Shown: piece by piece, positions 1,209 through 24,181 of the stretch | How positions within the stretch are numbered: the first letter of the stretch is position 1 | Layout: each line of letters opens with the position of its first letter | Assembly: GCA_027622665.1 (NCBI GenBank) | Contig: JAQBYT010000050.1 | Location: 1-24,489 of the forward strand | Source of the DNA: Verrucomicrobiota bacterium | Lineage (GTDB): Bacteria > Verrucomicrobiota > Verrucomicrobiia > Opitutales > Seribacteraceae | Length of the DNA: 24,489 nucleotides | Direction of reading: 5' to 3' | Program-made: the position numbers and the translations under genes | Notes under the pieces: model-generated | The model's input: the letters and a program-made list of their open reading frames with translations, nothing else | What the model was told of the DNA's origin: nothing | Databases searched by the model: none

Positions 1209-1313
1209 ATACCCGAATCAGCCTCAACATTAATATAAACCCCATCTCACCGTTTGGTGCGAATGCATTGATGGGTTGACCGAGGGGGAGCGGGGAGTAG
1301 GGTTTGGGGGATG
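1209..1313 (+). promoter_or_regulatory. Repeated promoter/start module, copy B
   Basis: ATACCCGAATCAGCCT..ATATAAACCCC..ACCGTTTGG..CATTGATG..TTGACC(1276-1281)-N16-TAGGGT(1298-1303)-N7-ATG(1311). Confidence 0.75.
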
Positions 1314-1381
1314 AAGGCTCGTTACAAAATCAACGGAAACTTGTAATAGGCAAATCAATCGCAAGGCTCTACAATAACGAG

Positions 1382-1981
1382 ATGAAACAGTTACTGGTCA
1401 CTTTTATCGTCGCCCTACTGATGGTAGAGTGTGGGGAAAAACCGGGAGGGGATAGTCCCGAATCCAGCAAGAAGGACGGACTTCAAACTGATTACTACGA
1501 TAACGGGCAGAAGAAGTCTGAAGCAAACTGGAAGGACGGTAAGCGGGACGGACTTTTTACGTTTTGGTACGAGAACGGAAAGACGAAGTTCCAAGGAAAC
1601 TTGAAGGAGGGCAAGCATGACGGCCTTGGGACGATGTGGTACGAGAACGGGCAGAAGCAGGCGGAAGAAAGCTACAAGGACGGCAAACGGGACGGCCTGA
1701 ATACGTCGTGGTACGATAATGGGCAGAAGAAGTCTGAAGCAAACTACAATAATGGCAAACTGGACAGGCTCTGGACTAGTTGGTACGATAACGGGCAGAA
1801 GAGAGGCGAAGTTACTTATAAGGAGGGAAAGCTAATGACCTTCGTTTCTTGGAAACCGGATGGCGATAAATGTCCCGACACCAATATTTTCGACGGTAAT
1901 GGGGTTACGGTTGCATACAATGACAAAGGGACGGAAATTGCTCGCCTCACCTACAAGGACGGCGAACCCGTCCGAAACTAA
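1382..1981 (+). CDS. MORN-variant repeat (YwqK-like) putative lipoprotein
   Basis: ~24-aa repeats (W/Y)Y(D/E)NGQKK.E..YK(D/E)GK.DG; signal MKQLLVTFIVALLMVECG; ATG 1382 is preceded by TACAAT-N6, so it is preferred over the TTG at 1304. Confidence 0.85.
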   Translation: MKQLLVTFIVALLMVECGEKPGGDSPESSKKDGLQTDYYDNGQKKSEANWKDGKRDGLFTFWYENGKTKFQGNLKEGKHDGLGTMWYENGQKQAEESYKDGKRDGLNTSWYDNGQKKSEANYNNGKLDRLWTSWYDNGQKRGEVTYKEGKLMTFVSWKPDGDKCPDTNIFDGNGVTVAYNDKGTEIARLTYKDGEPVRN

Positions 1982-1990
1982 AGCTGCCTA

Positions 1991-2007
1991 AAGGCGTCCC
2001 GATACTT
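1991..2007 (+). repeat. 17-bp post-stop motif, copy 2
   Basis: Exact match to 1008-1024 and 12007-12023; starts 10 bp after the MORN gene stop. Confidence 0.9.
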
Positions 2008-2054
2008 CAAAAACCCCCGCTTGACCTGAACTACCGCTGGTATTGGATGGAGGG

Positions 2055-3101
2055 ATGAAGAAACTACTGGTCGCTACGTTCGTCGTATTATGTCTTGCCC
2101 TTTCAGCAGAGGAACCGGTTCGTACTTGGACCGACCTCAAGGGTGCCACAATAAAAGCCGAATTCGTCCAGTTTGCGGACGAAAAGGTCATCATTCGCCG
2201 TGACGACGGGGTTTCCTTCAAGGCGTCACCCGCAATCTTTTCTGCGAAAGACCGCAAGTACTTGGATGAGTTGAGTCAGAAGCTGAATCAAGTCGGCAAG
2301 GCAGCCCCAGAAGCTCCCGTACACTTCAATGATGCCAAGCTGGAGGCCGCCCTCCGTGAGGTGCTGGGAAAACCAGCAGCCCCCCTCACCCGCAGGGACA
2401 TGGCCTCACTGAAAGAGTTTAAGGCCCTAGAAAAGGGAATCACCGACCTCTCCGGCCTCGAACACGCGACCGAACTGACTGGCCTGAACCTCGCCAACAA
2501 CCAAATCACCGACATCTCGCCACTGGCGGGACTGACCAAGCTGGCGACGCCGTATCTCAGCAACAACCGAATCACCGACGACCAACTAGGCACGCTGGCG
2601 AAGTTGGCCAAGCTGACGATTCTATTCCTCCCAGGAAACCTAATCACCAACATCACGCCGCTAGCTGGGTTGACCGAACTGACCGATCTAGGCCTCAGCG
2701 ACAACAATATCACCGACCTCACGCGACTCGCGGAGCTGGTCAATCTGAGTGATCTGACCCTCTACAACAACCAAATCACCGACATCTCGCCACTGGCGGG
2801 ACTGATGAAGTTGGAGACACTGTTTCTGGAAGAAAACAAGATCACCGACCTTACGCCGCTGGCGGGGCTGGCCAAGCTGACCGAACTATTCCTCGACGAA
2901 AACAAGATCACCGACATCACCCCATTGAAAGGATTAGCCAAACTGGTGATTCTGTTCCTCAACGACAACAAAATCACCGACGCCAAGCCGCTAGTGAAGT
3001 TGACCAAACTGGAGGGACTGCTCCTTGGCAACAACCCCATCACCGCCGACCAGCAGGCCATGCTCAGGAAGGCTCTGCCGAACTGCGACATCGAGTTCTG
3101 A
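2055..3101 (+). CDS. Secreted SHD1-domain plus internalin-like leucine-rich repeat protein
   Basis: Signal MKKLLVATFVVLCLALSA; RTWTDLKGATIKAEFV..FSAKDRKYL (SHD1-like); F.DAKLEAALR cap; 22-aa LRRs L..L.L..N.ITD..PL; exact 41-bp DNA duplication 2495-2535/2765-2805. Confidence 0.9.
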   Translation: MKKLLVATFVVLCLALSAEEPVRTWTDLKGATIKAEFVQFADEKVIIRRDDGVSFKASPAIFSAKDRKYLDELSQKLNQVGKAAPEAPVHFNDAKLEAALREVLGKPAAPLTRRDMASLKEFKALEKGITDLSGLEHATELTGLNLANNQITDISPLAGLTKLATPYLSNNRITDDQLGTLAKLAKLTILFLPGNLITNITPLAGLTELTDLGLSDNNITDLTRLAELVNLSDLTLYNNQITDISPLAGLMKLETLFLEENKITDLTPLAGLAKLTELFLDENKITDITPLKGLAKLVILFLNDNKITDAKPLVKLTKLEGLLLGNNPITADQQAMLRKALPNCDIEF

Positions 3102-3466: not shown

Positions 3467-5572
3467 TCAATATCCAAACCAATCTTTCGCACCTTTCCAT
3501 CCACTATCTTTGTAGGATTGATCAGGGTAAAAAGGAATATCATCGGGCTTCCGGGGTTTGTCCTTCAGTTCACCTTTGCAATATTTTTTCCACTCGGCCC
3601 AACCTTTTAGTTTTAGCTTCCGGACAAATGCCCGTGCTTTTTCAAATGAGCGGTAGATTCTGTCTCGGGTGGCAATTCTGCCGGTTCCAAGCCAGTCGCC
3701 CATTCCTTTCCACCCGCTATCTTTGTAGACTCTTTCTGGGCCAACTGGAATATCATCGGGCTTCTTCGGTTTGTCCGCCAGTTCGCCTTTGCAATATTTC
3801 GCCCACTCGGCCCGGCTCTTTAGTTTTAGCTTTCGGGTGAAAGCCCGTGCTCTTACAAGTGAGCGGAAGGTTCTGTCTCGGGGTACAATTGCATCGGTGC
3901 CAAGCCAGTCACCTAGATTTGTCCATCCGTTATCCTTGTAGAATCCATTGGGGCTCGTTGGAATGTCATTGGGCTTCTTCGGTTTGTCCTGCAGTTCGCC
4001 TTTGCAATATCTTTGCCAATCGTCCCAACTTTTTAATTTTAACTTCCGAACGAACTCCCGAGCTTTAACAAAAGAGCGGTAAGTCCTGTCTCGGGTGGCA
4101 ATTCTGCCGGTTCCCAGCCAGTCGCCTAAGCTTTTCCACTCCTTGCCTTTATATTTGTCACGGGGATTTGCCGGGATATCATCGGGTTTGGGGGGTTTGT
4201 CCGCCAGTTCACCGATGCAATATTTTTGCCACTCCGCCCAATTTTTGAGTTTTAGGTTACGGACGAAAGCCCGAGCTTTAGCAAATGAGCGGTAGTTTCG
4301 ATTAAAGGTCGCAATTGTGCCGGAACCGAGCCAGTCGCCCACGCCTTTCCATCCCTTCTCTTTATAGCTTTTGCTGGGATTCGCCGGGATATCGTCGGGT
4401 TTCTGCGGTTTGTCCGCCAGTTCACCGATGCAATATTTTTGCCACTCCGCCGAATCCTTTAGTTTTAGTTTCCGAACGAATGCCCGGGCTTTGTTAAATG
4501 AGCGGTACACTTTATTATAGTTGGCAATTGTACCGGTTCCCAGCCAGTCGCCCGCGCCTTTCCAGCCTTGGTCTTTGTAGATGTTCCATGGAGCCGCTGG
4601 AATATCATCGGGCTTGGGGGGGGTGTCAGCCAGTTCACCTTTGCAAAACTTCTTCCACTCGGCCCCATTTTTCAGTTTTAGCTTCCGGACGAATGCCCGT
4701 GCATTTTCAAATGAGCGATAGTTTCTATTAAAGGTCGCAATTGCGCCGGAACCGAGCCAGTCGCCCATGCCTTTCCAGCCCTGATCTTTGTCGATTCTTT
4801 CGGGACTGGTTGGAATGTCATCGGGTTTCTGCGGTTTGTCCGCCAGTTCACCTTTACAATATTTTGACCACTCGTCCCGACTCTTTAGCTTTAGCTTCCG
4901 GGCGAATGCCCGTGCTTTTTCAAATGATTGGTAGATTCTGTCTCGGGAAGAAATTGTACCGGTTCCGAGCCAGTCCCCCGTGCTTTCCCAACCCCTGTCT
5001 TTGTAGGTGCTGGTGGGGGTCGCTGGAATATCATCGGGTTTCTGCGGTTTGTCCGCCAGTTCTCCTTTGCAATATTTCAACCACTCGAACCAACTTTTGA
5101 GTTTTAACTTTTGAGCGAATTCTCGGGCTTTTCTAAAAGGGCGGTAGATTTTATCTCGTGGAGCAATTGTTCCGGTTCCAAGCCAGTCACCTACGCCTTT
5201 CCACCCCATATTCTGATAGATTGCAGCAGGGCCTGCCGGGATATCATCTGGCTTCGCGGGTTTGTCTGCTAGTTGGCCTTTGCAATATTTTTTCCATCCA
5301 ACCCAACTATTGAGTTTAAGCTTGTGAACGAATGCACGTGCTTCTTCAAATGTGCGATAAGTTTTATCTCCTGGAGCAATTGTGCCGGTGCCGAGCCAGT
5401 CACCTCGGCCTTTCCATCCCTTATCTTCGTACGCTTGATTTGGATTTGAAGGAATATCAACGGGTTTTCTTGTATTGCCCGCCAGTTGGCCTTTGCAATA
5501 TTTGTTCCATTCGGCCCCACTTTTTAGTTTCAGCCTGTGAACGAATGTCCGGGCCTCTTCAAAAGGCATCCA
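3467..5572 (-). repeat. Coding tandem array of 213-bp units (9 full plus 1 shortened terminal unit)
   Basis: 2106 bp = 9 x 71 codons + 62 codons + stop, read from the translation. Confidence 0.95.
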
Positions 5573-7582
5573 AGAAAGCTTTGCCAGTTTGCCCCAAACC
5601 TTAAGCTCCACTTGCTTGGCAAATTCATCGGGGTCGACATCGATTCCATCAGGCACGGAGAAAACAAACTTTCTTTTGCCGACCGCAGGTCGTTTGCCCT
5701 GAGATACCGAGCGGAAGTACTCGACGATACGCTCATCATTGGAAGCCAAGGCGCGAAGAACCATAAGAATGGCATCATACGCTTCATTTTGCTCGATGCG
5801 TTTCTCCAGTTTCTTGGAATCGAGAACAATCGGGATAACAACGTAACCACGCTTCTTCCCTTTGCTTGGCCGCAATGCGCGACCCACGGCTTGAACGATG
5901 TCAACGGTGCTTCCTTTCGGATCGGCGAAGAGAATGCCGTCAATTTGCTTTACGTCCACGCCCTCGGTCAGGCAGCGGGCATTAGTGATTAGGCTGCGCT
6001 TGCAGGAAATGGCTTCGTCCAATTTGCGTTGTCGCACCGAGGTGGGCATTGCTCCGGTGACGTGAAACGTTTCCAGTTCCCCAAACTCACTGAACTTGCG
6101 GGTGATTTTATCCTGCGTCAGCTGGAATGCCTCTGCCCGAGCAATGGTCGAATGAAAGGAAATGCAATGCCGCAGGGGATGGGCCTCCATCGATTTACGA
6201 AGCTGCAGGGCGGCGGCAAGCATCTTGGCCTCAAGCTCGTCATTCCATTGCCCAAGCTTTGGCTTCACCAGTACGTTGGAGCGGATGAGCTTCTTCACCT
6301 CGTCGGTGGTTACCACCATCGTGACGATTTGGTAGTCACTGAGGATAGGTGGTTTGCAATTCAATGCTTCTTTAAAGGAGAGTAGCTCGAAGGTTTCCCC
6401 ATATACATCGGGCTCATCCATGCTGAGGATGTCGTCCCCAGTCCCTTGATATCGTCGCTCGGTAGCCGTCATGAAGAGACGCTTATCAACCTTGATGTTC
6501 CGGTCGAATAGGAGATGACCGAACAGTTTGCCTCTTGCCCCAACCGTTTTGTGCGCCTCGTCAAAGATGCCGAGATCGAATCTGAACTTGGCCTTGCGTG
6601 AAGCCTGGGCTAGTACTTGTCCGCTTTGATATGTGACTAAGGCAATGCTCGTTGACTGGGGGCGTTTGCGCAGCCATGCGGTGATTTGTTCCGGCTTGCT
6701 CTTAATTTCCACACCCAGGTCTTGCGTAAGGACAGCGACATCGTCCTTTGAAACATCCTTCACGCTTTCATCGCTACATACGCATATCCACCTGATGTCT
6801 CGTTTCGTGGCTAGTGATTCACGAGCCCAAACCTCTAGTGTTTGCCTAATGAGGGCTAAGCTCGGGACGGCAATGAGGATGCGCTTGGCTTTCAGGTCCT
6901 CGGCAATCCAGTAAGCACCGAGACTTTTTCCCGCACCACAGGGCATAATCATTTTCCCTCGCTTATTCTTTTCCTTAATAAAATGTTTCCTGGCATTGCG
7001 GATAGCGCGTTTTTGATGCTCGCGAGGAGTAAACGCTTCGATGCTTTTTGCCTTTCCGGCGATGTCGGCGTGGATGCGAGTGAAGAAGTCTTCGTCCAGT
7101 CCCCTCCATTTTTCTCCGGAACAGAAAGTGACCCTGTCGGCGTGATAGAGCTTTAGCTTGTAGCTGAAGCGGTCAACCGATGTGCATACGAGTCCAAGGG
7201 AGATGCCGTTGCATACGGTAAAGGATAAATCCGTGAAGGTGCTAAGTTCCTTTCGAGTCAGTGATTGGGCTTCATCTGTCTTGTACTTGCACTGAATAGC
7301 CCAGTAATCGCCTTCCTTGGTCTGGGCAAGCAAGTCGACACCCTCGTCGCTGTGAGGCAGGTTGAGCTTTCGATGCAGGGCATGGGGCACTTCCCCTTTG
7401 TTGATATTCCATACATGCTTCAGTGCAGTGGCGTAGGTGGGGTCCAGTTTGAGGTAATACTCTGTTAGAGCCTCGAAGCAGTTTCCCTTTTCCTTCTCCG
7501 ACAAGTTAGCGAGCTGCTCCTTGAAGGAAGCCCAATTCTTTGACTTCTTTAGAATGCCAATCGGTGAAGCAGTAGTTGTCAA
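3467..7582 (-). CDS. Mrr-like restriction endonuclease plus SF2 DEAH helicase plus ten 71-aa C-terminal repeats (INT_rpt-like)
   Basis: EKGNCFE..GVDLLA..WAIQCK nuclease motif; PREHQ, MPCGAGKS, FDEAHK, MTATER, LTEGVDV, QAVGRALR helicase motifs; repeats YRSF..AR.F.RKLKLK...EW.KYCKG...KP.DIP..P...YK..GW...GDWLG; TTG start overlaps the upstream TGA. Confidence 0.9.
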   Translation of the reverse strand: MTTTASPIGILKKSKNWASFKEQLANLSEKEKGNCFEALTEYYLKLDPTYATALKHVWNINKGEVPHALHRKLNLPHSDEGVDLLAQTKEGDYWAIQCKYKTDEAQSLTRKELSTFTDLSFTVCNGISLGLVCTSVDRFSYKLKLYHADRVTFCSGEKWRGLDEDFFTRIHADIAGKAKSIEAFTPREHQKRAIRNARKHFIKEKNKRGKMIMPCGAGKSLGAYWIAEDLKAKRILIAVPSLALIRQTLEVWARESLATKRDIRWICVCSDESVKDVSKDDVAVLTQDLGVEIKSKPEQITAWLRKRPQSTSIALVTYQSGQVLAQASRKAKFRFDLGIFDEAHKTVGARGKLFGHLLFDRNIKVDKRLFMTATERRYQGTGDDILSMDEPDVYGETFELLSFKEALNCKPPILSDYQIVTMVVTTDEVKKLIRSNVLVKPKLGQWNDELEAKMLAAALQLRKSMEAHPLRHCISFHSTIARAEAFQLTQDKITRKFSEFGELETFHVTGAMPTSVRQRKLDEAISCKRSLITNARCLTEGVDVKQIDGILFADPKGSTVDIVQAVGRALRPSKGKKRGYVVIPIVLDSKKLEKRIEQNEAYDAILMVLRALASNDERIVEYFRSVSQGKRPAVGKRKFVFSVPDGIDVDPDEFAKQVELKVWGKLAKLSWMPFEEARTFVHRLKLKSGAEWNKYCKGQLAGNTRKPVDIPSNPNQAYEDKGWKGRGDWLGTGTIAPGDKTYRTFEEARAFVHKLKLNSWVGWKKYCKGQLADKPAKPDDIPAGPAAIYQNMGWKGVGDWLGTGTIAPRDKIYRPFRKAREFAQKLKLKSWFEWLKYCKGELADKPQKPDDIPATPTSTYKDRGWESTGDWLGTGTISSRDRIYQSFEKARAFARKLKLKSRDEWSKYCKGELADKPQKPDDIPTSPERIDKDQGWKGMGDWLGSGAIATFNRNYRSFENARAFVRKLKLKNGAEWKKFCKGELADTPPKPDDIPAAPWNIYKDQGWKGAGDWLGTGTIANYNKVYRSFNKARAFVRKLKLKDSAEWQKYCIGELADKPQKPDDIPANPSKSYKEKGWKGVGDWLGSGTIATFNRNYRSFAKARAFVRNLKLKNWAEWQKYCIGELADKPPKPDDIPANPRDKYKGKEWKSLGDWLGTGRIATRDRTYRSFVKAREFVRKLKLKSWDDWQRYCKGELQDKPKKPNDIPTSPNGFYKDNGWTNLGDWLGTDAIVPRDRTFRSLVRARAFTRKLKLKSRAEWAKYCKGELADKPKKPDDIPVGPERVYKDSGWKGMGDWLGTGRIATRDRIYRSFEKARAFVRKLKLKGWAEWKKYCKGELKDKPRKPDDIPFYPDQSYKDSGWKGAKDWFGY

Positions 7583-8456
7583 AATTCGACGTCTCGGCAG
7601 CGGAGTTCCAGTTGGTAGCTGATTTTTCTTTTTAGACTATCGTCGATGGTCGGTGTCTTTTTGAGAACTGCTGAGCGAATGTTCTTTGGGTTCAGTACCA
7701 ATAGAGGATCTCGACTAGTGCTTTCTACGAACCAACCGGGCAAGGCGAGTATGGGAAAAACCTCAATGGAAGTATCGAGGCTAGCGCTGAGGTGCTTGGA
7801 CAAAAGGCGAGCGTTGTGCGTTGCCTGGCCTATGCCTTTCTTGGTGGTGCGATGCGGGAAGCGGAGTTCCTTGCCGTCGAATTTCACCTCGTAGTTTTTG
7901 CCGTTGGCGGCTTCCGTGGGTTTGCGGTAGGTTTTAGTCTCGATGGCGAAGACTCCGTTGGGGCCAACTAGTATGTGGTGATGTTGCCCGTCTTGCCGTC
8001 GGGTTCGATTGGGAAGTCGTGAAAGACTTCAAAGCCATCCTTTAGCATCGAGTGAAGCATTCCCCCTACAAGCCTCTCGCCCCTGAGACCGAGGAAGTAA
8101 TTCGCCAAGGAACGAATCTGCTTGGACAAAAAGAACGAACAGGCAAACCCCGCCCCGAACAAAAGAGCAAACCAAACCCACGAGCTCAACCCGAACCAGA
8201 GCAGTCCTGTGGATACTTTGCCGGCTGAGGAAAGGAAAGAAATGGGTCCCAGGCTCAAGAAGACAAGAGTGAGCAGGCATCTCTCCGTCCGCGCCTCCAC
8301 CTCGAGCCCCAAACTGTGACCGGGCTCTCTCATCATCTTCTCTCCCGTAGGCACGGGGCTCTTGTGGTAAAGAAAGGTCTTGGAGCGAAAGGCAAAAAGC
8401 CAAGTGCCCCCAACCAGACCGCAAATGTAACCCAGCGTGAGAATCGAGGTAATCAT
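7579..8456 (-). pseudogene. Membrane-anchored NERD-domain nuclease with a 1-bp frameshift (or sequencing error)
   Basis: ORFs 7968..8456 and 7579..7887 join into G..GE..V..HD..GNI[D]HILVGPNGVFAIETK if one G is restored between 7980 and 7979 (ATC[G]ACCAC); hydrophobic N-terminal segments. Confidence 0.85.
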
Positions 8457-19792: not shown

Positions 19793-20383
19793 CTATTTTT
19801 CGAATTTCGAGTTTTGAGAAATAGGCAAACCATCGACGTGCTTAATTTCTTCAACAAGCGTCCCATCGGAATCCCAGTTACGCCAGACTCCATGGGGAAT
19901 TCCTTTTTCGTGTCGCTGCTCCCGCCACTTTACCCCACTCGGACGCCAAATTGTAGACAAACCATCCTTTTCGCCGTTAAGAAAAAAACCGGCCATTTTC
20001 TTTTTACCGTCGGGATACCACATGGTGAAAGGACCATTGTTTTTTCCATTCTTTTTTTGCCCTCGCCAACGCGGTAAGCCATTGTCGTAAAAAGTGCTCC
20101 AGAAACCCTCAGCTCGGCCCTCCTGTAGTTCTCCTTCAAAAATCTTTCGGTTTTGTTCGTCTAGACCGACCGTCGAACCCTCGGCTTGACCGTTTCGCAT
20201 TTCGTATAACTGGCGACCGTCCGTAGTTTTTACTATTCCATTAAATCGGGAACGATTTACGTCGGAATTTTGAAAAAGGTCGGCTTCGTCTGTCGCCTCC
20301 TCAGTTCTGTCCTGCAATTCCTTCTCACCACAGGATTGGATCAATATAGCGGAAAGGAACAAAAACGTGCGCAAAGTCTTCAA
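19793..20383 (-). CDS. MORN-variant repeat lipoprotein
   Basis: Lipobox IQSC; G.W..(F/W)Y..G..K..G....G...G repeats. Confidence 0.8.
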   Translation of the reverse strand: MKTLRTFLFLSAILIQSCGEKELQDRTEEATDEADLFQNSDVNRSRFNGIVKTTDGRQLYEMRNGQAEGSTVGLDEQNRKIFEGELQEGRAEGFWSTFYDNGLPRWRGQKKNGKNNGPFTMWYPDGKKKMAGFFLNGEKDGLSTIWRPSGVKWREQRHEKGIPHGVWRNWDSDGTLVEEIKHVDGLPISQNSKFEK

Positions 20384-20644: not shown

Positions 20645-20830
20645 ACAAAACCGACAAACCAACTGACACCCAACTGACACCCAACTGAAAATAAGCGTAA
20701 AAAGAGATGAAAAAAGGATGAAAAAAGGACGAGGCAATGCTGACAATGCTTGCAATTGTTTTGATGACAAAACCGACACCAACTGACACCCAACTGACAA
20801 TGAAAATAAGCATAAAAAGAGACGAGGCAA
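20645..20830 (+). repeat. Imperfect duplication containing tandem CCAACTGACAC 11-mers
   Basis: Copies 20645-20737 and 20767-20830; 11-mers start at 20659, 20670, 20681 (partial), 20779 and 20790 (partial). Confidence 0.85.
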
Positions 20831-21855
20831 AAATGGCGGCAGGCAAGGCTTTCTGGAGGTTGTCCGTGTGGTCCGCAGGGAAGCGGTATAGGAAGTTTTT
20901 CAAAACGCACAGGGAGGCGCATAATTTCGACACATTGGCGTGGCTTTCTAATATGGCAAGGCTTGAACCTCGAGGGCCGGATACAATGGTGAGTGCCGCC
21001 GTTGCCGAATATTTACAGGAATATAAGGAGGTGAACATGAATCCCGCAAAACCCGAACCCAAAGGCCTGAGGACTACTCGCGATCGCGTCTTTAAGTGGC
21101 TGTGGTATCTGGACTCGCGTTCCGTGGTTTTCTGTCGCGACGTAGCGACAGCGCACCTCATTGATTATATTACTTCTGGGAAGTGCCAGTGTGGGCCACG
21201 GCGCGGTATGCCGTGGTGCGAGGAGTCGAGGAAGGCGTATGCCGCCGCCGCCATGACATTCATGCGATGGTGCGCGGAGAAGGGATATGGTGTGACGAAG
21301 GGCGAGTGGTTTGTCCAGACCACCACCAGCTCGCTGACATGGCGAAAGCAGAAGACTTTTGATTCTAGCCCAGGCATCTGCTCCCCTGAAGAAACCGCAA
21401 ATCTATTGAACTTTATCCATGAGCAGTATCGGCCTGCCCTAGCGATTATGTTTTTCACTGGGATTCGTCCGGAAGTCGAGATGTCGCTACTACGATATTC
21501 GGATATCAGCTGGGGGGAGTCCATAAAACTGGAGGCTATGCGCACGAAAACCGAGAAGGAAAGGGTCTTGTTCGACCTCCCGGAAAATTTATGGAAGTGG
21601 GTACCTAAAAGGAAAACTGGCAAAGTAATGCCCAGTTATGGAGCTCTCAATCAAGCCCGCCGCAGGGCGGCACGCAGGGCGGGCTTCAATTACCCAGCGG
21701 ATGGGGCTCGGCATTCCTTTGGGTCGTACGGCTTCTGGCTGGGAGTGGAGTGGGCGATAGACACGATGGGACACTCGAACACCAGTACGTTTTTTAAAAA
21801 TTATAAAAACAACAAGACCAACAAGGGAATGGCCAAGGAGTATTTCTCCATTTAG
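20800..21855 (+). CDS. int: Tyrosine recombinase / phage integrase
   Basis: FFTGIRPE (R), RTKT (K), GARHSFGSY, MGHS, KNY (Y); N-terminal GKRYRKFFKT arm-binding-like segment; ATG 20800 follows the repeats. Confidence 0.9.
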   Translation: MKISIKRDEAKMAAGKAFWRLSVWSAGKRYRKFFKTHREAHNFDTLAWLSNMARLEPRGPDTMVSAAVAEYLQEYKEVNMNPAKPEPKGLRTTRDRVFKWLWYLDSRSVVFCRDVATAHLIDYITSGKCQCGPRRGMPWCEESRKAYAAAAMTFMRWCAEKGYGVTKGEWFVQTTTSSLTWRKQKTFDSSPGICSPEETANLLNFIHEQYRPALAIMFFTGIRPEVEMSLLRYSDISWGESIKLEAMRTKTEKERVLFDLPENLWKWVPKRKTGKVMPSYGALNQARRRAARRAGFNYPADGARHSFGSYGFWLGVEWAIDTMGHSNTSTFFKNYKNNKTNKGMAKEYFSI

Positions 21856-21896
21856 CGGGGGGGGGTAAAGAAATGTTTACCCCCCCGCTAAAAAAT
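21851..21896. terminator. Strong hairpin at the integrase stop
   Basis: TTTAGC-G9-TAAA / TTTA-C7-GCTAAA inverted repeat; A tract on the plus strand. Confidence 0.7.
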
Positions 21897-21913
21897 AAAC
21901 ACGAAGATTCGTG

Positions 21914-21951
21914 TTGCAATTCATCAGTGTGTTTTTAGATTCAAAAACATG
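21914..21951 (+). promoter_or_regulatory. Leaderless-type sigma70 promoter
   Basis: TTGCAA-N16-TAGATT-N7-ATG, same geometry as the island module. Confidence 0.5.
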
Positions 21952-22185
21952 GAGGACAAGGAAAAGAGATTAGCATCCGAGGCATTCGACGCATTTGAAA
22001 GAGTGCGTCCTATACTGGAGGAGTATTTCGACAACTGGGTATTGACTGGTCATAGAGCCGGCTGTGGAACCAAAATTATTCTGGGCGATATATGCAAGGG
22101 GTCGTCCCTCGCATCTCAGGATATGCAACAGCAACATGACAAAGCTAAAGAGTGGAAAGCAATCCCCTTGGGAGATTCTCAATAA
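21949..22185 (+). CDS. Phage-like hypothetical protein
   Basis: 78-aa ATG ORF directly behind the promoter-like signal. Confidence 0.6.
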   Translation: MEDKEKRLASEAFDAFERVRPILEEYFDNWVLTGHRAGCGTKIILGDICKGSSLASQDMQQQHDKAKEWKAIPLGDSQ

Positions 22186-22387
22186 ATACCCACCCGTTCT
22201 GGTTCGGCTAACGGCGAAGACTCAACCACCGACAACGCGTGCGCTTACGGATCAGGAGGTAGCCATTAGGTCCGGGATTCCCTTGGGTGAAATCAAGAGG
22301 CTTTCCCGGCTGACCTCATGGGACGACGTTCCTATTGGTCCGGCTAGATCATTCTGCCTTGCCTGTAGTTTTGACCCCTTCAGTTAA
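22136..22387 (+). CDS. Small HTH-like hypothetical protein
   Basis: LTDQEVAIRSGIPLGEIKRL helix-turn-helix pattern; internal ATG 22136 of ORF 22064..22387 chosen. Confidence 0.5.
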   Translation: MTKLKSGKQSPWEILNKYPPVLVRLTAKTQPPTTRALTDQEVAIRSGIPLGEIKRLSRLTSWDDVPIGPARSFCLACSFDPFS

Positions 22388-22586
22388 TCGCCCGGAAGAT
22401 TTATTCAATATCCGCCACCAATGCGCACAGGAAGGCGCAGGAGCGCAGGCAACCTGCAAGTGGCAATGGTATCCGAGACCCTCCCAAACCGCGCTCCTAG
22501 GGTATCTCTTTGCAATTAGAAGACTCCTAGACGCGCCACTCCACAGGGTGTCAGATTCCCCCTAATGAAATTTTTCAAGACCTAAA

Positions 22587-23039
22587 ATGAAAACAGTGTC
22601 ATCACCTAATTTGTCAGCCATCGCCCGGCAGCATAAAATCACTCGGAACACACTGCAAAGGTGGCGCGACCAAGGACTAAACCTAATGGATCACGCCGCC
22701 ATCACTGAGCGAGTGGAGAGAATGCGCCAACCCAGCACAAGCGCAACCTCCGCACCACCAGGATCCGAAAGTTACAGCGAAGCCAGACGGCGAAGGGCGA
22801 TAGCCGATGCAGACCTTGCGGAGCTAAAAAGCGATCAGCAACGCGGTAAACTCATCGACCTTGCAACGGTTGAGCAAGCCTTTGCTGAGATCGGTTATGT
22901 ATTGCGCGCACGCTTGCTGGCTTTACCGTCGAACCTAGTTCCAGAACTGGAAGGATTGAGCGCATCACAGATGCACAAAACTCTGCAAAAACACGTCCAC
23001 CAGTTACTTCACGACATTCACGAGAACTCACCAATTTGA
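22587..23039 (+). CDS. Small terminase subunit, Nu1-like
   Basis: N-terminal HTH (NLSAIARQHKITRNTLQRW), then EARRRRAIADADLAELK....RGKLI....V..........RARLLALP..L..EL typical of Nu1-type TerS. Confidence 0.75.
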   Translation: MKTVSSPNLSAIARQHKITRNTLQRWRDQGLNLMDHAAITERVERMRQPSTSATSAPPGSESYSEARRRRAIADADLAELKSDQQRGKLIDLATVEQAFAEIGYVLRARLLALPSNLVPELEGLSASQMHKTLQKHVHQLLHDIHENSPI

Positions 23040-23057
23040 CACGTCCCGGAAGATGTC

Positions 23058-23627
23058 ATGTGCAATCTCCCACCCATCGCCAAGCAAGCAGAAATTGCCC
23101 AGATATTTGGAGTATCTACACGCACACTTCACCGATGGCACAAGGACGGCATCGACTTGCTCGATCCGCTAGATGTGGCAACAAAAATTGTTTCCCCAAA
23201 ATCAACCACAGATCCCAAACCACTAATACAACTAATGAACTCCCAAACGACTGAAGCCGCCGCAATGCAAGCGTTGCAAAACGATTCAAAACTTGCTGCA
23301 CGATTTGATGCGGAGATATTGCCCAAGACGAAAGGAAGAAATCGCAAGGAAGCGGTAAAAATAATTGTCGCAGCATTAGAGCAAAAGCAAGCTGCCACGC
23401 TCGCTAGTCAACGGGCAAAGGCAACGCGATCACTGGCTCAAACCGCAGCCCAAAAGCTCAAATCTTTAGCCGGAATCAAAGACAAGAGCAAACCTGCGGC
23501 AGCCCCCGCTAATCACCTAACAAATTACAACTCACTGCGCACCTCCAACCCATCGAAGGCTAGAGCCTACCTCCAACAGCACGGCGCAAGTATCCAAGCC
23601 GCAGCACGGCGCGCATCCACGATCTAA
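23058..23627 (+). CDS. HTH-containing, Ala-rich helical protein
   Basis: KQAEIAQIFGVSTRTLHRWHKDG is a clear HTH; co-oriented with terS. Confidence 0.7.
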   Translation: MCNLPPIAKQAEIAQIFGVSTRTLHRWHKDGIDLLDPLDVATKIVSPKSTTDPKPLIQLMNSQTTEAAAMQALQNDSKLAARFDAEILPKTKGRNRKEAVKIIVAALEQKQAATLASQRAKATRSLAQTAAQKLKSLAGIKDKSKPAAAPANHLTNYNSLRTSNPSKARAYLQQHGASIQAAARRASTI

Positions 23628-23638
23628 TCGAAATCAAT

Positions 23639-24181
23639 ATGACCGTAGAACTCCAAGCACCACCCGCCAAGCTGACCTTCACCAAGGACGAGAAATCCCG
23701 CCTCCAAGCTGCCGCCGCAGAAATTGAGAGACTCGAAAACCGCCTTGTCGAAATCGAAGCCCTCCGCAATGTCATCACCTCCGCAGAAGCCGACTTCGTT
23801 TCCGGGAAGCTGGACATAACCGAAGCCGCCGGGTTGCTCTCCGTCACGAATGACGTTAATGCCCGCAACGCCCTCCAGATGCGTCTCCGTAGCCCGGTGA
23901 AACAGGCTATGAAGGCAAGCGTGCAATCCGTTGCCGACCTACTCGCCAAGGCAGATCAGCACCGTGTCGATGCCCTAGCAGCACAAGCCAAGGACGTTGA
24001 AACATCAGAGCGCGAGGGATTCGATACGCACGGATTGAATCAAGACGAATTTCGCCCAAGCCCATTGCTCCTTGCGCTTCGCGAAAAGCACCGCCGTGCG
24101 CTCGATAATTCCAAGCGTATCACCTATACGAAACAGAGCCTTACGACCCTGCTTGATCTTTGTGATGATCGAACCGCATAA
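23639..24181 (+). CDS. Coiled-coil hypothetical protein
   Basis: 180-aa ATG ORF 11 bp after the previous stop and followed by a terminator. Confidence 0.7.
   Translation: MTVELQAPPAKLTFTKDEKSRLQAAAAEIERLENRLVEIEALRNVITSAEADFVSGKLDITEAAGLLSVTNDVNARNALQMRLRSPVKQAMKASVQSVADLLAKADQHRVDALAAQAKDVETSEREGFDTHGLNQDEFRPSPLLLALREKHRRALDNSKRITYTKQSLTTLLDLCDDRTA

Follow-up and report, generated by a model that had tools for sequence, protein, structure and literature searches.

An Mrr nuclease-motor related to Type ISP restriction enzymes carries an exchangeable array of INT_rpt-like repeats in place of a methyltransferase

The 24,489-nucleotide (nt) stretch of DNA analyzed here, referred to as the window, is the entire contig C52 of a Verrucomicrobiota genome (G000; 93.5% complete) and carries on its minus strand a gene of 1371 amino acids (aa) at 3467..7582. 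Based on its open reading frame (ORF), Pfam matches, a parse of its repeats and alignment to the Type ISP enzyme LlaBIII, the gene encodes an Mrr nuclease, a superfamily 2 (SF2) motor, the start of a coupler and ten INT_rpt-like units, all described below on the same strand. The Mrr_cat_2 nuclease domain (aa 45-143; 7154..7450; Pfam E = 1.9e-13), which also aligns to LlaBIII, has its catalytic residues D79 and D83 at 7334-7348 and Q97-x-K99 at 7286-7294. The SF2 ATPase/translocase (aa 184-572; 5867..7033), recognized by the Pfam models ResIII and Helicase_C and by the LlaBIII alignment, has a Walker A motif at aa 214-220 (6923-6943), DEAH at aa 341-344 (6551-6562) and motif VI at aa 564-571 (5870-5893). 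Both the D79-x3-D83...Q97-x-K99 nuclease motif and the three motor motifs are intact. A linker follows (aa 573-670; 5573..5866), the first part of which aligns with the post-motor region of LlaBIII, up to aa 648. A preliminary description of this DNA, made from the letters alone, had proposed an Mrr-type nuclease and SF2 helicase in a Type ISP-like layout, and the domain matches, motifs and LlaBIII alignment confirm it. Matches to Exonuc_X-T_C, GIDA_C_1st and DUF7336 in Pfam and NCBIfam were rejected as spurious sums over the repeats.

The front half of the protein aligns with LlaBIII 26-676 (E = 1.2e-57), and with LlaBIII and LlaGI (E = 1.2e-57 and 5.3e-45) it shares the Mrr nuclease, SF2 motor and coupler start in one chain. 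In contrast to those enzymes, it has no N6-adenine methyltransferase, target-recognition domain (TRD) or evident self-marking, and the family has an array of 2-14 units instead, which in the window enzyme occupies the slot of the LlaBIII methyltransferase-TRD. PADLOC models for fused restriction enzyme-methyltransferases match only aa 26-646. Because methyltransferase and TRD were both tested for and are absent, the window enzyme is not a Type ISP enzyme. The lack of a methyltransferase, also anticipated in the preliminary description, extends beyond this protein: methyltransferase motif IV ([ND]PP[YFW]) occurs in 0 of the 120 nearest nuclease-motor halves (hereafter engines), no methyltransferase was found among 20 further window ORFs scanned, and a DNA methylase lies within two ORFs at only 1 of 40 related loci. 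The neighborhood counts cover 130 neighbors of those 40 loci, with at most two ORFs per side, ORFs called here and many short contigs. Three N6-methyltransferases are encoded on other contigs of G000, unlinked to the window gene.

From aa 671 to 1371 the protein consists of repeats throughout. A 213-bp tandem period (9.5 copies, 74% matches) was detected by TRF at 3534-5563, and the protein parses into ten units at an exact spacing of 71 aa, the tenth having 62 aa. Unit 1 (aa 671-741; 5360..5572) contains, near 5541 in its first helix, the point where identity between sister alleles ends. It is followed by units 2 (5147..5359), 3 (4934..5146), 4 (4721..4933), 5 (4508..4720), 6 (4295..4507), 7 (4082..4294), 8 (3869..4081), 9 (3656..3868) and 10 (3467..3655), the last of which lacks the inter-unit linker and includes the stop codon. 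Units are 52-76% identical to one another, and units 6 and 7 have an exact 45-nt tract in common at unit positions 19-34. The array is 14.1% K, 7.3% R and 5.3% W with a net charge of +61, in agreement with the earlier account of ten Lys/Arg/Trp-rich 71-aa repeats. Gene and unit are single-copy in G000, where a search for a second copy or a silent cassette of either found none. We rejected the array as a target of a diversity-generating retroelement: G000, at its 93.5% completeness, holds no template copy, and variation also occurs at non-A bases. The one reverse transcriptase gene in G000 is unlinked to the window gene and contains a stop codon.

The preliminary description had likened the unit to Pfam INT_rpt (PF14882, also called PHINT_rpt). 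Scored directly, the best window unit tested reaches 16.3 bits against a cut-off of 26.5, and a PF14882 profile search of G000 gave no match, in a run where the control likewise matched nowhere. PF14882 is precomputed on most homologues, however, and the family profile matches the canonical INT_rpt units of a Gamma-Mobile-Trio (GMT) integrase with 97.8% probability (hhalign). INT_rpt clusters also rank first in Atlas at 0.96, a lead only, since the recognition value there is low. Because the window units fall below the Pfam cut-off, their membership rests on homologues and profile comparison; by these sequence comparisons they belong to the INT_rpt superfamily. PF26016 is precomputed on many homologues and absent from the Pfam scans made here. 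The other candidate, the HA repeat (PF03457), also forms small helical repeats behind SF2 motors, but the window units have no HA match in Pfam at E up to 10, and no HA structure occurs among the VIA matches. The unit has weak structural matches to giant-virus SF2 helicases (E 0.013-0.034), which we take to be bearers of HA repeats. Thus homologues and profiles favor INT_rpt over HA, while the direct score remains short of the cut-off. In the literature searched, which included few subscription papers, we found no description, function or structure of the INT_rpt unit family; in PMC8078820, PF14882 has one row of a table of repeat families whose structures are not known.

Canonical INT_rpt units occur on VPA1269/GmtZ-like integrases of GMT islands, as at locus L085, which holds a complete gmtY-VPA1269-gmtX trio. 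There the homologous unit varies at positions equivalent to those of the window family. The window unit differs in its length (71 aa, compared to 59 aa in L085), with both its loop and its linker extended, in being basic rather than acidic, and in sitting on a nuclease-motor. At L085:3635-7456, the VPA1269-family integrase of the GMT trio has eight acidic INT_rpt units at its N-terminus.

AlphaFold2 predicts each unit as four short helices (4-13, 19-26, 44-48 and 56-60) and a turn at 67-69. The array models have pLDDT values of 88 and 91 and global pTM scores of 0.39 (ten units) and 0.59 (two units), which suggests well-folded units of uncertain relative placement. Since global confidence is low even for two units, a rigid TAL effector (TALE)-like superhelix is unsupported and independent finger-like domains fit better. 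The comparison to a TALE- or zinc-finger-like reader therefore survives in part: variation at fixed positions appears selected (see below), and the TALE-like geometry lacks support. We take a fixed scaffold, focused variable residues and unit shuffling to be traits common to TALEs, C2H2 zinc fingers and this family; the window family differs in that no homology to either was found and in having about eight variable sites in 3-4 patches per unit, which is more finger-like than TALE-like. Neither sequence searches, Foldseek nor VIA (best Z 2.9) found a solved relative of the unit, an absence that is no proof of a new fold.

The likeness to Type IV enzymes (EcoKMrr, MspJI, McrBC), which have an Mrr-type catalytic site without a cognate methyltransferase, raises an alternative that we consider improbable: each unit would recognize one modified base within a short context specific to that unit, the array would be a panel for foreign modifications, and a host without such marks would be spared. 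Self-avoidance without a methyltransferase would be solved at once, and the Mrr family includes modification-dependent nucleases, as stated in passages of PMC12707154. Position 56 is hydrophobic across the family (M 30, W 29, Y 12, L 9 and F 8 percent) and co-varies with position 19, so it could form a methyl pocket. Unlike Type IV enzymes, however, the window enzyme has no detected winged helix (wH) or SRA reader and has a translocase and a hypervariable array. The modified-base readers wH, SRA and PUA gave no sequence or fold match to the units, which with a best Z of 2.9 is weak evidence against modified-base reading. Additionally, the same units occur on integrases and homing-type nucleases, which normally read unmodified DNA.

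The family is large. In an array search 2406 of 7999 scored candidates passed, and 5634 clusters at 50% identity passed a unit-profile search. An alignment-based scan yielded 79 genome loci in Verrucomicrobiota, Bacteroidota, Cyanobacteria, Proteobacteria, Chloroflexota and archaea; a single-protein scan before it had confirmed none. All 120 nearest engines (754-2400 aa) bear between 2 and 14 units, mostly 4-8, so repeat number does vary across homologues. The D-x3-D...Q-x-K nuclease motif is kept in 75 of 77 homologues. One clade (P0022, P0041, P0016, P0099) has a variant Walker A loop and retains DEAH. All 347 arrays counted are net positive, with a median of +4 per unit. Plasmids gave no match to three window units and phages a single matching record, and no RNA dataset was listed as holding the window gene.

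Among 267 array proteins, 157 have this engine and 71 the array alone; in 8 the array precedes another helicase, usually with Methyltransf_8 at the end, and 31 are other fusions, including to a GmtZ-like integrase, GIY-YIG and SAP domains. These architectures bear on the idea that the units sense phage proteins or DNA mimics in the manner of pattern receptors and so set off abortive killing by the nuclease-motor. Placing diversified repeats on toxic effectors is a known immune design, and in L030 and L088 array-only genes lie in runs. The fusion partners that were identified nevertheless nearly all act on DNA (integrase, HNH, GIY-YIG, SAP, helicases), the arrays are basic and their variable residues have base-reading chemistry, and we give protein sensing only a slim chance.

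Comparison of sister alleles revealed exchange of units. P0036 and P0042 have 2 differences in their first 773 residues, are then different throughout 11 units, and end in the same tail. A set of 173 engines yielded 12 groups with 54 pairs of 93% or higher identity. Of these pairs, 34 have no unit in common (at 90%), 11 have some and 9 nearly all; an unshared pair is present in 9 of the 12 groups. Clustering at 90% favors seeing different arrays in these counts. Array replacement was seen on engines 93-99.7% identical. Replaced arrays are 69.7% alike, compared to 72.8% among units within one array, and this similarity suggests reshuffling from a lineage pool. Of 17 hand-picked sister pairs, 12 cease to be identical within unit 1, after its first 8-13 residues; as the first helix of unit 1 is conserved, the true crossover may lie slightly earlier. 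P0105, P0273 and P0274 have units 1-6 in common and diverge within unit 7, and single units recur at other array positions. Units are thus exchanged as whole arrays, part arrays and single units, as the preliminary description had supposed in calling the array recombinable. Assembly chimeras are possible in such comparisons, though chimeras cannot create units. In the marine sequencing run X8, from another study, we found both the window's unit 1 and a contig with another in-frame unit after this engine; that contig has 5 differences in 491 bases up to 5541 and continues into a unit absent from G000. Apparent backward joints in the read-run mapping were discarded, being the window's own units 2 and 3 mapped onto unit 1. 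P0288 shows a fresh duplication, its units 3 and 4 having the same protein sequence. Depth in run X3, at 114-140 for engine contigs and 60 for the array contig, gives no share of cells and was not used, as this may itself be the source sample.

This turnover also bears on whether the gene is a selfish homing-type or element-competition nuclease whose long site lies in an empty allele or a rival mobile element rather than in phages at large. Long sites suit homing, and the gene is sporadic, being full-length in 1 of 61 searched genomes (G000, the window's own). Integrases and transposases lie near several loci and, together with Fic proteins, recur among the neighbors of the 40 loci. Jumbo-phage contigs bear units with HNH and GIY-YIG domains, and P0295 adds helix-turn-helix (HTH)-like repeats. 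We still regard homing as very improbable: a homing target next to the gene would be expected to stay the same, while arrays are wholly replaced on engines 93-99.7% identical, and Type ISP motors cut far from their site, as PMC3553950 reports.

Within the units, the preliminary description had placed the variation at positions 18-20, 42-43, 45-47 and 56. All residue strings it listed match the unit sequences, including the SR/ER/M that units 4 and 9 have in common; it missed positions 23 and 67-68, which are among the most unit-specific by family data. Within the window alone, positions 18-20 (1.6-1.8 bits) do not exceed the ordinary positions 5, 35 and 51 (2.0-2.5 bits). Ten window units cannot separate the two classes of site, and only homologues can. 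A conserved core with a variable surface is usual for any repeat, and because it is expected anyway we used control positions. Across 1037 internal units from 121 arrays, the lineage share of diversity is 0.02-0.07 at the unit-specific positions 19, 23, 42, 43, 45, 46, 67 and 68, where a single array is as diverse as the whole family. Positions 24, 35 and 38, of equal total diversity, are instead homogenized within arrays (lineage share 0.20-0.29). The variable residues lie at predicted helix starts and co-vary: the pairs 43-45, 64-67, 19-56, 19-23 and 43-46 reach z of 12-17 against within-array permutations. Covariation between adjacent units is weak, with a best excess of 0.095 bits. Residue chemistry differs as well. 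N/Q/R/H make up 41% and K/E 10% of the residues at the unit-specific sites (without 42); the corresponding values for ten other variable sites are 17.5% and 35%. Base reading is typically done by N, Q, R and H.

We then compared recently duplicated units, taken as pairs with a scaffold proportion of synonymous differences (pS) below 0.15 (18 of 1633 pairs in 80 arrays). In these 18 young pairs the proportion of nonsynonymous differences (pN) is 0.34 at the eight sites versus 0.04 at the ten other variable sites, with a scaffold pS of 0.09, the site classes having been picked on data that partly overlap those tested. The eight unit-specific sites change faster than silent sites in recently duplicated units. 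Together with lineage share and residue chemistry, this bears out the focused variation for which the preliminary description had suggested a per-site dN/dS check. Two features temper this result: the young pairs are drawn from about 8 arrays, with 10 of 21 pairs from one, and silent change too is elevated at the eight sites (pS 0.16), so that patch replacement contributes.

The same comparison speaks to a simpler explanation, that the array is a non-specific DNA tether whose variation is a by-product of repeat recombination and relaxed selection on exposed residues. Repeats recombine whatever their function, and among all window unit pairs, which are older, pN at the eight sites (0.55) merely equals scaffold pS (0.58). 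The ten other variable positions, however, are homogenized and K/E-rich and differ sharply in young-pair pN (0.04 vs 0.34), and an intact nuclease-motor that neither selected its targets nor marked self DNA would probably be toxic. A tether is, in our estimate, quite improbable.

We judge it to have slightly less than an even chance that the exchangeable array on this single-gene, methyltransferase-less Type ISP relative reads DNA sequence and triggers the nuclease-motor on foreign DNA. We favor sequence reading because the array fills the methyltransferase-TRD slot and turns over like a specificity module, and because the same units head the VPA1269 integrase of GMT islands, which insert only at cognate sites (passages of bioRxiv 10.1101/2023.03.28.534373). 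For Type ISP enzymes, excerpts of the literature describe a near-identical front and different recognition ends in LlaBIII and LlaGI (PMC3553950), a LlaBIII ATPase motor that is gated and activated by target binding of the methyltransferase-TRD (PMC7049714), and DNA cutting by two converging enzymes (PMC3553950, PMC4872093). The array would read a long DNA sequence unit by unit, each unit contacting bases via the starts of helix 2 (positions 19, 20 and 23), helix 3 (42-46) and helix 4 (56) and via residues 67 and 68 of a linker turn. As in LlaBIII and LlaGI, target binding would activate ATP-driven translocation, and cutting would occur once two enzymes meet. The weakest step is the last: the host would be spared because its own genome would lack a composite site as long as that of 5-10 units, and recombination in the conserved scaffold would maintain a library of arrays across the population, with selection favoring those that hit local invaders.

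Several observations weigh against sequence reading as a defense. By arithmetic, a site rare enough to be missing from a 4.5-Mb host needs ~12 or more fixed bases and would be present in fewer than 1% of random phages of 50 kb, so blind shuffling would be an inefficient defense; that a long site spares the host yet is rare in phage leaves room for modified-base reading. From the scanned ORFs the window is no defense island, the neighbors found at related loci resemble an island only loosely, and no PADLOC model covers the array. Walker A is canonical in 65 of 77 homologues, with variant P-loops in those of the others that were inspected. The 8-unit array of the L085 GMT integrase has a net charge of -17 and, being acidic, counts against a purely charge-based argument. 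Lastly, the GMT preprint passages name no protein as site reader.

From sequence evidence, the family is a widespread relative of a known kind of enzyme, and its evolution shows strong signs that the recognition module is swappable. Restriction enzymes need to distinguish self from foreign DNA, and this family has lost the usual means and gained a fast-shuffling array; whether the answer is long sites or modified bases, it would be a new defense logic. A broader proposal, possible though doubtful in our view, is that INT_rpt units join TALEs and zinc fingers as a third class of programmable modular DNA reader in nature. Each unit would fold independently and read a few bases through a learnable code, and microbes would shuffle the units into a library spread over the population. 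That library would direct to long sites a nuclease-motor that has no methylase and, in other settings, integrases and a helicase-methyltransferase, amounting to anticipatory protein-based immunity without guide RNA. Among 2158 units there are 980 different triplets at 43/45/46, and recurring residue words are enriched yet so many that a small TALE-like alphabet does not apply. Allele pairs that combine one engine with different arrays amount to natural experiments already set up, and thousands of natural units together with GMT integrases of known insertion site could yield a recognition code, the L085-type integrases offering a route to decoding units from insertion sites. If a code exists, the units would be a new programmable DNA-binding scaffold, naturally fused to nucleases, integrases and a methyltransferase.

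Other architectures were observed among the related loci. In P0097, P0080, L006 and L093, from bacteria, archaea and large viral contigs, the array precedes a different SF2 helicase and then Methyltransf_8, with no nuclease detected. A Nitrosopumilus locus (L030:2245-11554) has five overlapping array-only genes of 4-5 units each, plus one gene with a single unit and one with eight, and the helicase-Methyltransf_8 protein is encoded separately; this may be a split form whose readers are interchangeable subunits. Fourteen viral loci, several on 300-500 kb contigs, include fusions to HNH and GIY-YIG domains as well as array-only genes in runs. Such runs occur on the large viral contigs L088, L089, L095 and L090, some with Cys/His-rich N-terminal repeats, and are possibly decoys or regulators. 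A 485-kb uncultured phage (L084:4813-6594) has a five-unit array after a Cys-rich N-terminal region that looks homing-nuclease-like by eye.

In the window, the upstream gene on the minus strand (7579..8456) encodes a NERD domain, is frameshifted near 7970-7990 and overlaps the nuclease-helicase start codon with its stop. It had no relative among ORFs of the 79 related loci and is not a conserved partner, and no conserved partner gene emerged among the 130 neighbors. The frameshift is either a true lesion or an assembly error. The contig end at 20737-24181 is island-like, with a 372-aa ORF that resembles a tyrosine integrase by eye and has no Pfam match, a DUF1441-like ORF and an HTH ORF, and short direct repeats lie at 20659-20729. 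MORN-repeat and leucine-rich-repeat (LRR) genes of ordinary type flank the region at 1304-3101 and 19793-20383.

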